Shown: positions 9,950-17,537, numbered from the stretch's first letter. The stretch: 64,000 bases of DNA from an uncultured Candidatus Saccharibacteria bacterium (GCA_964402215.1 CAYOAT010000003.1:29167-93166), one strand, 5' to 3'. Translations and numbers: made by a program. The notes: a model not told the origin generated them from the letters alone.

Positions 9950-10002
9950 TTACGGACATCGTACGAATCACGGGGAATTAGATTAAGAGCTGGGCAAGGG
10001 AA
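9950..10002 (+). repeat. R1: truncated copy of island repeat family (ggacatcgtacgaa...ggggaatta...)
   Basis: Shares the 5' core GGACATCGTACGAA and the gagggaatta segment with R4-R7, middle part missing. Sits immediately upstream of gene 10024. Confidence 0.45.
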
Positions 10003-10023
10003 GTGTGTGATATAATATTTTTT

Positions 10024-10641
10024 ATGAAAAAATATATGTCATTATTAGTTGTTTTATTTATTTCTTTTTTTATAAATAATAATGCTGTTTTTGCATATGA
10101 ACCGTACGGGTTTAGTTCGTATGGAGCTACTGCATCTAATGCAATTTTGAGTATCACCTCTGTGAAAGAACTAAATGAAATTTCGAAGGTGGTTAAGGCA
10201 CAGATTAAAAATTTAAAAAGTGGTAGTCTCAGAGAAAATCTTTATATTCCAGAAATCACTCTTTCATTACCAGGTGGAACCGATTTTGGTTCAGCAGGGA
10301 TGGTCATGGATCAGCAATTAAAAGTTGTTGTCAAAAATGATAATCAGTTTGGTCAAGTTTTGGGTAGGAAAGATGTTGATTATGCTGTCTATTTGTATGA
10401 AACAACTAAAAATAAAAATAAAAAATTATTTGAAGCGGCTACCGGAACTGTTAATATTTTTGAAGGATATGGTGAGTTTTTCGTCAATATAGAAGGTGGT
10501 CAGCCCTTTGATGGGAAAAATATGGAGAAAACCTACCGAGCCATGGTTGTGATTGACTCATCAAAAGTTATTAAAGAATCAGATGAAAAAGATAACAGTG
10601 TCTGGTCTGATGAATGGCATATTACTTACTATAAAGGTTAA
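10024..10641 (+). CDS. Secreted hypothetical protein (signal peptide)
   Basis: Probable start MKKYMSLLVVLFISFFINNNAVFA (Sec signal, AxA-like site). 205 aa. Confidence 0.4.
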   Translation: MKKYMSLLVVLFISFFINNNAVFAYEPYGFSSYGATASNAILSITSVKELNEISKVVKAQIKNLKSGSLRENLYIPEITLSLPGGTDFGSAGMVMDQQLKVVVKNDNQFGQVLGRKDVDYAVYLYETTKNKNKKLFEAATGTVNIFEGYGEFFVNIEGGQPFDGKNMEKTYRAMVVIDSSKVIKESDEKDNSVWSDEWHITYYKG

Positions 10642-10667
10642 TAAAATGTTGTTTACTATCTAAGTTG

Positions 10668-10820
10668 TGTGCATTGTGCGAAACACTTAGAACCAAATAG
10701 AAATATGGGTTTTACAGACATATGATTTATTAGTTAAACTAGAAAATAGGGAATTGCACATTCTGAAGTACCAAGATTAGATATCACATAGTGGTAATTA
10801 AATTGTTATAATGTATTAAT
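10668..10820 (+). repeat. R2: ~150-bp conserved intergenic module (island repeat family) ending in extended -10 TGtTATAAT just 5' of ATG
   Basis: gcattgtgcgaaacacttagaaccaaatagaaatatgggtttt...gattagatatcacatagtggtaattaaattgttataatg aligns with R4-R8. Confidence 0.7.
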
Positions 10821-11132
10821 ATGAAATTATTAGTATACAGTCTTTTTTCATTGTTAATCTCGGTGGGTGTCGGATTTTCTTACCCAAATTATACCCAGAG
10901 CCAGAATCTAACAAGAATGTTTATTGTTTTGATGCTAATTATCATCTCAATATTATTTTCATATAGAAGCTTAAAAAATGCCAGATTAAATTTGGTGAAA
11001 AATAATCGAGCAACTTCCATAAATCATATTGTAGCTACGTCAGTTCTTTCCATATCAATAATGTATTTTTTACTTTCAATTCTAAGTATCGTTATAATAT
11101 TAATTTCTGGAGGAGATCTCCGCCAGTTTTAA
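10821..11132 (+). CDS. Small membrane protein (3 TM)
   Basis: 103 aa hydrophobic ORF starting directly after R2. Confidence 0.35.
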   Translation: MKLLVYSLFSLLISVGVGFSYPNYTQSQNLTRMFIVLMLIIISILFSYRSLKNARLNLVKNNRATSINHIVATSVLSISIMYFLLSILSIVIILISGGDLRQF

Positions 11133-11175
11133 TTATTTAAAAACTTACCAAATTTATCATTACAATTTTGATTTG

Positions 11176-14713: not shown

Positions 14714-16342
14714 ATGAAAAACCGAAGACAAGGTTTCACTCTCCTTGAAATGCTTCTCGTTATAGCTATCATTGCGATTCTTGCTGCCATAGTAATCGTC
14801 GCAATTAATCCAGCTCGTCAATTAGCTCAAGCACGTAATGCCGAGAGAATTTCTGACCTAAATGCATTACATAAAGCTGTTCAACAATACTATATTGATA
14901 ATCGTGTCTGGCCACCACCAGATGACGATCTACCATCAGCACTAACCGATATCTGTAATACTGGTAATGGTGAAACAAACCCTTGTGTTCATCTAGAAGT
15001 CCTTGTCCCAGATTATTTACAATCTTTACCTCAAAACCCTGGTGGAGAGAACTATAAGATTGCATTCAATAGTAAAAAGTTTGCTTTTACTGCTCCTGGT
15101 TCAAAAGAACAAGGTTTGCCTGGTGTAGTCCTTGGAACATCTACTGATGCTGTCGATGATGAAGGTGGTGGAGGAGACACTGATCCAGAATGTAACGATG
15201 GAGAAGATAATGACGGCGATGGAGACATTGATTATCCGGATGATGCTGGATGCGATGATGCTGAGGATGATAGTGAAGCTGATGGCGTAGTACCGGTCGC
15301 CGGGGTTTGTGGGGCGGCTGATGGGCAGACACTTATTGAAGAACCAACTGAAGATTTATGTTCAGTTGGTGATACATCTGAGGTTCTTGGTGAAGGACCG
15401 TGGTTCTGGACTTGTGCTGGTCAAGACGGTGGAGAAGATGATGAGTGTCATGCAGACTATGATTTGCAACCAGTTTTAGTTGGGCAATATAATACTTCCG
15501 GTTGTTCACATGCTGTCCATATTTCCGGAAACTATGCATATGTTGCAGATGAAAGTTCTGGCTTACAAATAATAAACATTTCAGACCCAGCGAACCCAAT
15601 CTGGACTGGTTCATATGACACTCCTTATAATTCATACGGCGTCTATGTTTCGGGAAATTACGCATATGTTGCTGACGGAAGTTCAGGCTTACAAATAATA
15701 AACATTTCAAACCCAGCGAGCCCAGCCTTGACTGGTTCATATGATACACCTGGTGTGGCACGCGATGTCTATGTTTCTGGAAATTATGCATATGTTGCCG
15801 ATCAAAGTTCAGGCTTACAAATAATAAACATTTCAGACCCAGCGAACCCAACCTGGACTGGTTCATATGACACCCCCGGTAGTTCACACGATGTCTATGT
15901 CTTTGGAAATTACGCATATGTCGCCGATGCCATTTCAGGTTTACAAATAATAAACATTTCAGACCCAGCGAGCCCGGCCTGGACGGGTTCATATAATACT
16001 CCCAATAGTTCATATGGTGTCTATGTCTTTGGAAATTACGCATATGTAGCCGATGACAGTTCTGGCTTACAAATAATAAACATTTCAGACCCAGCGAACC
16101 CAACCTGGACTGGTTCATATGACACCCCCAGTAGTTCAAGCGATGTCTATGTTTCTGGAAACTATGCATATGTTGCTGATAACAGTTCTGGCTTACAAAT
16201 AATAAACATTTCTAACCCTTCGAGCCCAGCACAAGTTGGATCTTATTATGGTGGGGACGGTAATGCCTTCGGAGTTTATGTCTATGGAAATTATATATAT
16301 TCAGCTTTTTGTGCTTCCGGTTTGATTATTCACACCCCTTAA
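14714..16342 (+). CDS. Type IV pilin-like protein with acidic Asp-rich linker and C-terminal LVIVD-repeat beta-propeller domain
   Basis: N-terminus QGFTLLEMLLVIAIIAILAAIVIVAINPARQLAQARNAERISDLNAL (prepilin). Middle DPECNDGEDNDGDGDIDYPDDAGCDD. Seven tandem GNYAYVAD-SSGLQIINISDPANP...YDTP units (LVIVD-repeat signature). Confidence 0.8.
   Translation: MKNRRQGFTLLEMLLVIAIIAILAAIVIVAINPARQLAQARNAERISDLNALHKAVQQYYIDNRVWPPPDDDLPSALTDICNTGNGETNPCVHLEVLVPDYLQSLPQNPGGENYKIAFNSKKFAFTAPGSKEQGLPGVVLGTSTDAVDDEGGGGDTDPECNDGEDNDGDGDIDYPDDAGCDDAEDDSEADGVVPVAGVCGAADGQTLIEEPTEDLCSVGDTSEVLGEGPWFWTCAGQDGGEDDECHADYDLQPVLVGQYNTSGCSHAVHISGNYAYVADESSGLQIINISDPANPIWTGSYDTPYNSYGVYVSGNYAYVADGSSGLQIINISNPASPALTGSYDTPGVARDVYVSGNYAYVADQSSGLQIINISDPANPTWTGSYDTPGSSHDVYVFGNYAYVADAISGLQIINISDPASPAWTGSYNTPNSSYGVYVFGNYAYVADDSSGLQIINISDPANPTWTGSYDTPSSSSDVYVSGNYAYVADNSSGLQIINISNPSSPAQVGSYYGGDGNAFGVYVYGNYIYSAFCASGLIIHTP
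15527..16280 (+). repeat. Tandem coding repeats (~126 bp period, ~6.5 copies) encoding LVIVD units
   Basis: Near-identical DNA blocks ...ggaaattacgcatatgttgc...ggcttacaaataataaacatttcagacccagcgaaccc... recur. They produce the spurious antisense ORF 15333..16169. Confidence 0.75.
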
Positions 16343-16399
16343 TCTGCTGGGTTTATTATTAAAAAAGTCAGATTAAAAATCTTGATGCAAAAATATTTT

Positions 16400-16545
16400 G
16401 TGGACATCGTACGAAATACTTGGAACCAAATAGAACATTGGGTATTTAAGACGTACGATAAGTTGTTTAATAAGGAAAAGAGGGGATTACACTCTCTTGT
16501 TCATCAGAAATAGACATCACATCTTGTTATTTAAACAACCATTGT
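16400..16545 (+). repeat. R7: island repeat copy downstream of pilin-LVIVD gene with no plus-strand gene following (orphan)
   Basis: gtggacatcgtacgaaatacttggaaccaaatagaacattgggtatttaagacg...agaaatagacatcacatcttgttatttaaac. Its 3' end overlaps stop of minus-strand gene 16527. Confidence 0.65.
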
Positions 16546-17333
16546 GCAATTAGATAAGTGAATAAACCTGCAAATATGGAGCACAAATTTAACACAGTTG
16601 ATAGAAAGAGACTTTTTCTTATACCTATCCTTAAAAATATTTTATAACCAATCGCTTCAACTATTATAATTATAATTTCACTGATTAGAATAATGTTTGT
16701 TAGATTTGCACCAGCAGTTGAAGTTAATAACCAAAAGGGAGTAAAAGTTATTAAGTTTAATATGACAAGTAAGATTGCTGCGTTTTTAAATTTGTTACCA
16801 GTTTTCTTGATTTGTTTTAAGAAAACTAGCAATGCAATTAATTCAATTACTATTGTTAATAATAATGGAAAAAGATATTGAATATAAGTTTCCGGAATTT
16901 TTGCAGTTCTTGTTTTCTCGATAATCAAGTTACCGTCCGATGATTTATTTAAAGAATATGTGACAGTTTGTTGCAGTAAGACATCATTATTTGATATCCA
17001 GACATCGTTTGGAGATATTTTGTCTGATAATAAGTGTAAATCTGAGGTATTATTTTGGCTACCCCACCAAATAGAATAACTACTGAATTTATAAACCGAC
17101 TTCAAACATTTATTAAACTCGATTGGTTCATAAGTATCTTTGTTGTTGAACCCCTTGAATCCAGGTGGTGAAACCCTATTGAATAAATAAATGTTCTCAT
17201 AATTATTAGAATTTTCTATGATGACGCATGTTTTCACTGGATGTGCGTTTGTTGGCGCTAAATCTGCATGTGCGATTCTTCCACTAAAAACAATAACAAT
17301 AAAAAATAATGTATAAACAATTTTTCTAATCAT
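16527..17333 (-). CDS. Signal-peptide protein with C-terminal multi-TM region, function unknown
   Basis: MIRKIVYTLFFIVIVFSGRIAHA signal. Ectodomain ~140 aa then 4 hydrophobic helices. Confidence 0.35.
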   Translation of the reverse strand: MIRKIVYTLFFIVIVFSGRIAHADLAPTNAHPVKTCVIIENSNNYENIYLFNRVSPPGFKGFNNKDTYEPIEFNKCLKSVYKFSSYSIWWGSQNNTSDLHLLSDKISPNDVWISNNDVLLQQTVTYSLNKSSDGNLIIEKTRTAKIPETYIQYLFPLLLTIVIELIALLVFLKQIKKTGNKFKNAAILLVILNLITFTPFWLLTSTAGANLTNIILISEIIIIIVEAIGYKIFLRIGIRKSLFLSTVLNLCSIFAGLFTYLIAQWLFK

Positions 17334-17382
17334 GAATCGATTATATCAAATAGTAAATGTTAGATATATCAGAGATTTTTAG

Positions 17383-17537
17383 TGGACATCGTACGAAATA
17401 CTTGGAACTAAATAGAATGTTGGGTTTTTAAGACGTATGATTTGCTAGTTAACCCCAAAAGGAGAGGATTAAGCACTCCGAAGTATAAAGATTAGATATC
17501 ACATAGTGATAATTAAGTGGTATTATTTGTTATACAA
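17383..17537 (+). repeat. R8: island repeat copy abutting gene 17538
   Basis: agtggacatcgtacgaaatacttggaactaaatagaatgttgggtttttaagacgtatgatttgctagttaacc...gattagatatcacatagtgataattaagtggtattat. Confidence 0.7.

Follow-up and report, generated by a model that had tools for sequence, protein, structure and literature searches.

Organization of the locus

We analysed a stretch of 64,000 nucleotides from an uncultured Candidatus Saccharibacteria bacterium (GCA_964402215.1, CAYOAT010000003.1:29167-93166), hereafter the window, which carries at positions 9952-17518 an array of unrelated genes separated by copies of one conserved repeat. Each full copy of this repeat, here called a head, is ~137 nt long and comprises an open reading frame (ORF) of 36-37 codons, X, whose first 16 codons we call Block A, followed 3' of the X stop codon by a 23-nt box, Block B; the gene or genes between one head and the next are referred to as cargo. 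Six full heads and two partial ones, all on the plus strand, make up the array, which stops 24 nt from the 3' end of the transfer-messenger RNA (tmRNA) gene, with smpB and then ftsH beyond. We describe it as an integron-like array of cassettes that is anchored at the tmRNA gene and whose repeat codes for a micro-protein. An earlier examination made without database searches (the sequence-only reading) had described the conserved repeat in front of differing genes; the micro-protein gene within the unit, the abutting tmRNA 3' end, the likeness of the unit's start to the tmRNA terminus and the minus-strand units with a shared promoter element are additional to it.

The repeat is well separated from chance. 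A 44-nt core has four matches at three or fewer mismatches in the 64 kb, where shuffled sequences gave an expectation of zero, and a 20-nt sub-core has seven matches against 0.01 expected. A repeat finder returned the 5' core as a seven-copy family and the middle and 3' parts as five-copy families, and a MAFFT alignment puts the copies in register. The eight copies counted earlier are all present, but only six are full: R1 (9952-9969) consists of the first ~16-18 nt and R3 (11466-11498) of the 3' box only. Likewise, the two sub-families proposed for the middle and 3' parts exist as variants, but these assort independently once the array of a sister species (heads S1-S10) is included, and there is a third, internally deleted type (S4, S10). 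Assemblies from three independent samples contain the array DNA with 100% identity and the sister species has an analogous array, so the repeat is not an assembly artefact, a trivial explanation that had been raised. Contigs of other samples (L070, at its contig end, and L003) are interrupted where the array faces the tmRNA gene or slightly further in, and these breaks could be repeat-induced or could reflect strain heterogeneity at the locus.

Another such explanation was a generic promoter present throughout the genome. No further copy of the repeat was found in either orientation elsewhere in the window, and the exact core pattern has a single match in a 552-kb contig of a related species (L064). 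A scan of genome contigs with an 18-nt degenerate core gave 58 single matches at a chance-like level; one was inspected, and nhmmer on all 58 found nothing past the core. None of the GTDB representatives covered by the degenerate-core scan and nhmmer carries the array. A metagenome scan with the core returned two loci only, one of which led to the L064 genome, and two scans of viral contigs returned either nothing or a chance match within an unrelated protein-coding region. The unit is confined to one locus and one lineage, and is not a genome-wide promoter.

From left to right, the array begins with R1, in which the junction core and ~16 nt from the start of Block A are left (ACGGACATCGTACGAA); next come unique sequence and TGATATAAT at 10008-10016, before cargo c1 (10024-10641, plus strand; 205 aa, signal peptide, no Pfam family). 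R2 (10667-10803, or to 10812 with its extended -10) has Block B at 10781-10803 and the extended -10 TGTTATAAT at 10804-10812; its X is broken by TGG>TAG at codon 8. It precedes c2 (10821-11132, plus; 103 aa, three transmembrane (TM) segments). The place of the 5' part of R3 is occupied by c2b (11176-11451, minus), a 91-aa membrane protein, and what remains of R3, Block B with an ATCACA-17-TATTAT promoter (11466-11507, plus), stands ahead of a gene for a staphylococcal-nuclease homologue (SNase; 11621-12352, plus). R4 (12469-12605, or to 12613) has Block B at 12583-12605, TGTTATTAT at 12605-12613 and an intact X (12469-12579, ATG start, 36 aa), and is followed by c4 (12620-13384, plus; 254 aa, N-terminal TM or signal segment).

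R5 (13388-13525) has no -10 after it, and an extra T behind codon 16 breaks its X by a +1 frameshift. Next comes a minus-strand cassette (13630-14562) with genes at 13630-13998 (122 aa, TM) and 14150-14515 (121 aa), ending in ...AATGTCAAACTG and directly abutting R6 (14563-14699, or to 14707). R6 has Block B at 14677-14699, TGATATAAT at 14699-14707 and an intact X (14563-14676, GTG start, 37 aa); its cargo c6 (14714-16342, plus) encodes 542 aa, with a type IV pilin N-terminus fused to six LVIVD repeats. In R7 (16400-16536) X is again intact (16400-16513, 37 aa), Block B (16514-16536) has no -10, and the stop codon of the minus-strand gene c7 (16527-17333; 268 aa, signal peptide, four TM segments) falls within Block B. 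R5 and R7 are thus the two copies without a plus-strand gene, as had been noted from the sequence, both being followed by minus-strand genes. R8 (17382-17518, or to 17526), with Block B at 17496-17518, TGGTATTAT at 17518-17526 and an X broken by CAA>TAA at codon 10, heads the last cassette, c8 (17538-17960, plus; 140 aa, four TM segments). The tmRNA gene (17983-18363, minus) turns its 3' terminus towards the array, and smpB (18486-18935, minus) is a conserved flank.

The cargo genes of the window are mutually unrelated, comprising a secreted 205-aa protein, small multi-TM proteins, the SNase, the pilin-LVIVD protein and others. Of 23 cargo proteins from five genomes, 20 carry a signal or TM segment, which agrees with the earlier description of a cassette system whose genes are unrelated and mostly for membrane or secreted products. 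Many plus-strand cargo genes end 1-7 nt ahead of the next head. Plus-strand cargo is mostly AT-rich (24-32% GC), the exceptions being the nuclease (36-37%), the pilin (42%) and a 491-aa gene of L064 (54%), and minus-strand cargo has 40-48% GC except for c2b and c7 (28-29%). PADLOC found nothing among the window cargo, and exact look-ups of c8 and c2 found no other genomic context.

The repeat encodes a micro-protein

X starts with GTG (ATG in R4) at the first base of the repeat, and shows a coding-type substitution signature. Its pN/pS is 0.39 in frame 0 compared with 0.96 and 1.05 in the other frames, and its third codon positions are more variable than the first and second (permutation P = 0.01), both values being obtained on copies that are non-independent paralogues; one Leu codon is CTG, TTG, TTA or CTA depending on the copy. 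An exhaustive profile search recovered three called small proteins of 36-43 aa (P0167, P0168 and P0169) that carry the X motif, (M/V)DIVxNxWNxhExWV(F/Y)..Y. AlphaFold2, given an alignment of only three sequences, returned a single helix over residues 2-36 (mean pLDDT 91.6), and X is accordingly predicted to fold as one amphipathic helix. Two Trp residues and the N-terminus are conserved in the peptide and its C-terminus varies; in character it is amphipathic and charged, not hydrophobic. The X peptides had no match in a word-indexed protein search, and comparison with Pfam, PHROGs and the PDB gave no family, only a sub-threshold match to HTH_33 (E = 0.06). Read-through from upstream cargo would enter X in frame in five of nine cases, which is indistinguishable from chance.

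In the window X is intact in R4, R6 and R7 and carries a single, different lesion in each of R2, R8 and R5. The three broken copies all belong to one sequence subfamily, and the Trp8 codon (TGG) has become TAG both in R2 (window 10688) and in head S4 of the sister species. An intact X is present at least once in every genome seen, many of the other copies having decayed; this suggests that X acts in trans, and retention of an intact copy fits a trans-acting product without proving one. Block A is near-invariant in nucleotides across genomes whose core DNA is only ~80% identical, which suggests an extra constraint at the DNA level or exchange between genomes. It holds an imperfect palindrome, TAcTTGGaaCCAAaTA, seen directly in the sequence.

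A 40-codon ORF lies antisense to the tmRNA 3' region (window 17985-18107, plus), its GTG at the same junction-relative position as that of X. This could hint that X arose when a repeat of tmRNA origin was read antisense; the similarity in DNA falls short of significance.

Block B, promoters and the lack of a fold

Block B (ATCACATnnTGnTAnTTAAA) is followed after R2, R3, R4, R6 and R8 by TGnTATWAT, so that the promoter scan reads ATCACA-17/18-TATWAT with TG. The cargo ATG lies 6-11 nt after this element in four heads, and the nuclease gene behind R3 has a leader of ~113 nt. As Block B runs into TGnTATWAT near the cargo ATG, the head thus serves as part of the promoter, and its spacing implies that plus-strand cargo transcripts would be leaderless where the ATG lies 6-11 nt from the -10. 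The extended -10 that the sequence-only reading had put at the 3' end of its copies, with leaderless or short-leader transcripts, is present after five of the eight units, in four of them directly before a leaderless ATG and in R3 ahead of the long leader; R1 has a -10 of its own, and R5 and R7 have none. A further promoter proposed within the core, TTGGAA-N17-TATTTA, is not supported: it lies inside the conserved ORF, its -10 is not conserved (TTTTTA or TTTTAC in other copies), and the promoter scan did not report it. Block B is conserved also where no plus-strand gene follows (R5, R7 and head X1 of L078, a relative with two heads), and in another relative, L080, the -10 lies 35 nt from it, not 17; Block B is thus more than a -35 element.

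The promoter scan found no minus-strand promoter within the heads. The minus-strand genes at 13630-13998 and 14150-14515 each have a 12/12 consensus TTGACA-16-TATAAT (14045-14072 and 14531-14558), and a minus-strand cassette is a complete convergent transcription unit between two heads, with promoter, shared 5' untranslated region (UTR) and terminator. The promoter belongs to a second repeat family, a ~75-nt element made up of the perfect TTGACA-16-TATAAT and a conserved 5' UTR, which is found in the window at 9202-9230, 14045-14073 and 14531-14559 and in the sister species upstream of S3, S5, S10 and the tmRNA gene. The element drives minus-strand genes, mostly small and GC-richer, in the arrays and in the left flank (gene 8929-9159).

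The earlier reading had left room for a structured RNA leader. The module has no match in Rfam, either at the gathering threshold or at E <= 5. Folds of single RNA copies are no better than those of shuffles; single-stranded DNA folds of six copies on both strands range from -5.7 to -11.7 kcal/mol, with z-scores between -1.1 and +0.7 relative to shuffled sequence. For 17 copies drawn from three genomes, RNAalifold gave -0.55 kcal/mol and three pairs with no covariation, and six copies likewise gave no structure. The lack of a fold, of an Rfam match and of covariation excludes a riboswitch or structured leader as well as integron attC sites. Some copies have a small AGAGGG/CTCTCT hairpin, and the ends of the unit show a weak inverted similarity, GTGGACATC...GATATCAC (~7/10 nt). 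A dif/Xer-like reading of Block B and the -10 (TTATTTAAAT against the XerD arm TTATGTTAAAT) was made by eye only, and was dropped because the GC skew shows no terminus here.

Related loci and cassette turnover

Related loci were fetched through smpB homologues, with flanks of ~10 kb per relative. Four genomes have heads directly next to the 3' end of the tmRNA gene, namely the window, L069 with ten heads, and L064 and L080 with one head each. L069 is the sister species mentioned above; its SmpB is 93% identical and its core DNA 79.8% identical over 6.1 kb. Its ten heads have the same orientation and place as those of the window and carry other cargo, the only common cassette being that of the SNase (89% DNA identity over 1142 nt). 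Cassettes have evidently turned over between the two species. One L069 cargo has a weak match to a WapI-like immunity protein (E = 4e-4, below the family cut-off).

In L064 (SmpB 79% identical) both flanks are syntenic and a single head with the 491-aa gene is followed by the tmRNA gene; between loci the flanks are syntenic and the cargo between them is unrelated. In L080 a single head and a cargo gene for a 154-aa membrane protein precede the tmRNA gene, and a 17-nt direct repeat of the tmRNA end, lying ~200 nt upstream of X, flanks X and cargo together. The left part of L081 is as in L080, and the cargo differs beyond Block B. Between the tmRNA-end repeat and X these two loci (L080 35-220, L081 82-267; two samples) have a conserved GC-rich stretch of ~200 nt, 91% identical, which has no Rfam match and a partial 77% match at L077 827-906, and which may be an RNA or an element arm.

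L078 and L079 carry two heads at another locus, where the array ends in an orphan tmRNA 3' fragment (z = 5.0 for the L078 fragment against the window tmRNA end). In L078 this fragment, GGACACCGCGGGAATCGAACCAGAAACAGA at 5991-6020, directly follows the last cargo, with no tmRNA gene nearby and ruvC next. Over the first 8 nt, the fragment is closer to the head core (GGACATCG) than to the window tmRNA end.

No head was found within 6 kb in L071 and L072, whose SmpB is 92% identical. Here a 550-aa large serine recombinase with Resolvase and Recombinase domains (L071 10590-12480, also in L072) lies on the strand opposite the tmRNA gene, and its ORF overlaps the last ~140 nt of that gene. An island with trypsin-like and NYN-domain genes follows the recombinase in L071, and no head occurs before the contig end. 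The same relative has a reverse transcriptase (RVT_1) beside a bAvd gene at 4710-6092, between recG and ftsH, which indicates a diversity-generating retroelement; it is absent from that place in the window. The more distant relatives L074, L076 and L077 (SmpB 71-76% identical) have no module.

The tmRNA junction

The 5' junction of the unit is sharp, TTGTGGACATCG, and resembles the tmRNA 3' terminus, TTGTGGAGATGG. Every head has its 5' edge at (T)TGTGGACATCG, and the tmRNA terminus on the same strand is (T)TGTGGAGATGG; read on the plus strand, the terminus is TTTGTGGAGATGG and the head start TTTGTGGACATCG, the two sharing TTTGTGGA.AT.G, or 11 of 13 nt. The terminus, moreover, sits where a head start sits after every other cassette. 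The minus-strand ~75-nt element ends in ...AATGTCAA(A)CTG, and this end meets GTGGACATCG at one fixed nucleotide at R6, S3, S5 and S10, the cassette end reading ...AATGTCAAACTG at R6 and S3; elsewhere in L069 it meets, at that same position, GTGGAGATGG, which is the tmRNA terminus. As one and the same cassette end is fused to either, the tmRNA end and the head start are interchangeable junction partners. Such equivalence is what serial insertion at the core would predict, and it would be hard to obtain through RecA acting on 11 of 13 bases. The likeness of head start and tmRNA end rests on ~13 nt together with this equivalence of junctions. The flanks of the heads show no target-site duplications.

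Derivation of the whole module from the tmRNA gene was considered and rejected: local and global alignments were not significant against shuffles, and the ~13 nt with some short collinear matches remain as a lead only.

Origin of the array

The heads of one genome resemble each other more than they resemble their counterparts in the sister species. R4 and S2, which are positional orthologues in that both lie downstream of the nuclease gene, are 77% identical, compared with 85% for R4 and R6 and 90% for S2 and S6. The heads have therefore been homogenised within each genome; with the independent assortment of middle and 3' variants and the deleted subtype, it is clear that homologous recombination acts on the array.

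We propose that the array consists of integrase-less mini-cassettes, grown at the tmRNA 3' end, moved in trans and homogenised by gene conversion, an account to which we give an even chance of being right. Recombination of cassettes of the form core-X-box-cargo would take place at the core, the partner being either the tmRNA terminus or the core in a head already present; a newly arrived cassette would therefore come to be bracketed by cores, the last 'core' of the array being the tmRNA gene itself. The recombinase would be supplied in trans and encoded outside the array; in a sister strain this tmRNA site is taken by a large serine recombinase island. The heads in place would later be homogenised by gene conversion, with many X copies decaying, and the head would supply promoter elements to leaderless cargo. 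A Patescibacteria-specific capture system, in which the head is a dedicated module for recombination and expression, the core mimics the tmRNA acceptor end and is the crossover site, Block B is a second site of protein binding that also provides the -35 side of a promoter, and X is a trans-acting accessory or directionality factor or a regulator, so that membrane and surface genes are shuffled at the tmRNA gene, seems to us unlikely.

Several observations weigh against insertion by a dedicated enzyme. The Pfam scan found no integrase or recombinase domain among 50 window ORFs, which comprised all those of at least 150 aa except ftsH, recG, pilM and the antisense ORF 37489-37944, plus smaller ORFs of the array and left flank, and no recombinase is listed in the 10-kb flanks of L069, L064 and L080. 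Overall similarity of the head to the tmRNA 3' region is not significant (z <= 2.7) and is limited to the first ~13 nt, and the window has no second copy of the 21-nt tmRNA end at three or fewer mismatches. The L078 array is not located at an intact tmRNA gene. For an att core, a far shorter and far less conserved repeat would do; X is a pseudogene in about half of its copies, and its sequence points to no recognisable function. The partial heads with varied breakpoints (R1, R3, S4/S10) and the gene conversion show that homologous or illegitimate recombination acts too, and this could suffice without a dedicated enzyme. Finally, with three samples 100% identical, neither strain polymorphism nor a circular or excised form is observable.

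The strongest competitor makes the heads portable homology and dispenses with a dedicated recombinase. Circular or linear DNA with one head and its cargo would be taken up by these cells, equipped as they are with pili and competence, and integrated by RecA, through Campbell-type or homology-facilitated illegitimate events at any head, unequal crossing-over thereafter adding or deleting cassettes. The concerted evolution of heads within each genome, the mosaic of middle and 3' variants, the differing breakpoints of the partial heads, the lack of a recombinase in any array and the type IV pilus apparatus encoded in the window all fit this account, and the single, stand-alone X of L064 and L080 could be an ancestral seed. 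It accommodates poorly a 5' boundary that is identical to the nucleotide in all heads, a cassette end joined at the same nucleotide to a tmRNA terminus that shares only ~11 of 13 nt, too little for RecA, and the tmRNA-end direct repeat in L080, and it leaves the location at the tmRNA gene in four genomes unexplained; we judge it possible, if somewhat unlikely. Should the unit instead be purely regulatory, a shared promoter or operator with X as a small regulator or leader peptide, spread by local duplication and with no role in mobility, the conserved -35-like box and extended -10 ahead of six cargo genes, the Block A palindrome and the conservation of Block A nucleotides beyond coding need would follow. 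Yet Block B is kept in R5, R7 and L078 X1 with no plus-strand gene to serve, the spacing in L080 is wrong for a -35, the units are confined to one locus, and promoter duplication cannot explain unrelated cargo that turns over between 80%-identical species, so that such a module is very unlikely to be the whole explanation. An extremely unlikely version sees an array of effectors, with X a leaderless, cationic, Trp-containing amphipathic peptide of bacteriocin or toxin type and its small multi-TM neighbours as immunity or partner proteins. The size, predicted helix, conserved Trp pair and variable C-terminus of X, the prevalence of small multi-TM cargo and the sub-cut-off WapI-like match speak for it; the nuclease, pilin adhesin and HTH-PRTase among cargo proteins that are not mutually homologous, the intact cargo of the half of X copies that are broken, the failure of X to match a Pfam, PHROG or PDB family and the lack of export or processing genes in the array speak against it.

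Two further explanations are refuted on the features tested. A sedentary integron, or a cluster of attC sites lacking an integron integrase (CALIN; the criterion is at least two attC sites without intI), with its integrase elsewhere, would account for same-orientation repeats 0.7-2 kb apart between unrelated small ORFs and for cassette content that varies between relatives. As attC sites, however, the repeats would be expected to fold, and their single-stranded DNA folds like shuffles, with no R''/L''-L'/R' symmetry and an essentially empty consensus fold; the unit also holds a conserved ORF, the cassettes have their own promoters and no intI was found among the 50 window ORFs, which leaves this explanation barely credible. 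We regard as practically negligible a structured cis-regulatory RNA (riboswitch or leader) or a miniature inverted-repeat transposable element: the ~140-nt size, the weak terminal inverted similarity and the small hairpin of some copies would suit them, and they are opposed by the lack of an Rfam match, the shuffle-like folds, the absence of covariation in 17 copies, the single orientation and locus of all eight and ten copies in the window and L069, and the absence of target-site duplications. The statement of the sequence-only reading that the array is not an integron, CRISPR or insertion sequence is upheld.

Comparison with known systems

Composite staphylococcal cassette chromosome (SCC) and pseudo-SCC elements at rlmH (orfX) provide a precedent for recombinase-less cassettes stacked at the 3' end of a conserved gene: direct repeats related to the end of the target gene demarcate the cassettes, and large serine recombinases mobilise them in trans. 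Unlike the window array, SCC arrays have non-coding repeats of ~20-30 bp, elements of many kb and a protein-coding target gene.

Genomic islands at tRNA and tmRNA genes are similar in placement. An island in the sense of Islander is bounded by a regenerated tDNA and a displaced 3'-end fragment, forming a direct repeat, with the integrase inside (PMC4383910), and tycheposons of Prochlorococcus accrete as tandem islands at tRNA/tmRNA genes (bioRxiv 10.1101/2020.12.28.424599). As in such tandem islands, the variable DNA of the window lies exactly at the tmRNA 3' end, its units share one orientation with newer and older ones adjacent, and the separating repeat starts similarly to the tmRNA terminus; L080 has a true tmRNA-end repeat, and L071 a recombinase-bearing island at the same site. 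The array units differ in being tiny (0.4-2 kb) and without integrase or replication genes, and what separates them is no displaced tmRNA fragment, but a ~137-nt unit with a consensus of its own that holds a promoter box and the conserved gene of 37 codons.

With integron arrays and CALINs the array shares unrelated small genes, a same-orientation repeat of ~140 nt, content that differs sharply between close relatives, and repeats that are closer to each other within an array than to positional orthologues. It differs in having neither IntI nor an attC hairpin and in a repeat that is protein-coding. Integron cassettes are mostly promoterless and depend on a common Pc, whereas here each plus-strand cassette has a TGnTATWAT promoter and minus-strand cassettes have 12/12 promoters and terminators.

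The rAID-1 arrays of Bacteroidales are arrays of small genes with a repetitive intergenic sequence 'reminiscent of integrons', a XerD-family recombinase conserved at one end and orphan-immunity cargo (Ross et al., 10.1101/471110). They resemble our array in the repetitive sequence between same-strand small ORFs, many of which are of unknown function or membrane-related, and in a GC content skewed relative to the genome. No XerD-family recombinase was found here among the 50 window ORFs scanned, the lineage is Patescibacteria and the anchor is tmRNA. Cargo of toxin-immunity type is not apparent from Pfam or PADLOC in the window, the one weak WapI-like match in L069 lying below the cut-off.

The analogy with Mycoplasma vsp/vlp/vsa loci drawn in the earlier reading extends to surface-protein genes with a common conserved upstream region. 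It finds no support beyond that: those loci hold homologous lipoprotein genes and switch between them by inversion at specific sites or by slippage in homopolymers, and the window has unrelated cargo genes, no inverted copies and no invertase. Type I toxin-antitoxin repeats (Ibs/Sib, Ldr/Rdl) have a small hydrophobic toxin ORF and an overlapping promoter for an antisense RNA; for the heads, the observations are that X is amphipathic and charged and that the scan gave no minus-strand promoter in them.

The Patescibacteria (the Candidate Phyla Radiation), which have very small genomes and spend their lives fixed to host cells, rely on surface proteins. In this lineage the locus is a compact hot spot at which membrane, secreted and pilin-type genes turn over almost fully between 80%-identical species. 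Its repeated unit, which combines a tmRNA-end-like junction, a micro-protein gene and a promoter box, was not seen in the other described cassette systems, and it reveals a small family of 36-43-residue proteins under purifying selection, mostly missed by automated annotation. Should a recombinase indeed act in trans, the array would be a minimal integron-like capture system with a short defined site and built-in expression signals for leaderless genes; with a dedicated head module, it would be an integron in function, built from different parts.

Other features of the window

Within cargo c6, five or six tandem 126-bp repeats (15487-16290; 73-81% identical) encode the LVIVD beta-propeller blades. 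The pilin N-terminus of c6 is paralogous to a resident pilin (1045-1956), and its acidic, DGD-rich linker matches a second pilin (45808-47268).

To the left of the array, between a conserved VTT-domain gene and the first head, window 4546-9868 holds minus-strand ORFs with no family matches and a higher GC content (~40%). The corresponding position in L064 has unrelated small minus-strand genes and a tRNA-Ala gene, and the variable region may thus include this block as an earlier portion.

In the right half of the window, the ORF for the phenylalanyl-tRNA synthetase beta subunit (53790-56129) is interrupted between domains B3_4 and B5 by an inserted NlpC/P60 peptidase domain at residues 345-466, and a stand-alone Peptidase_C39-like protein is encoded next to it at 56191-56787.

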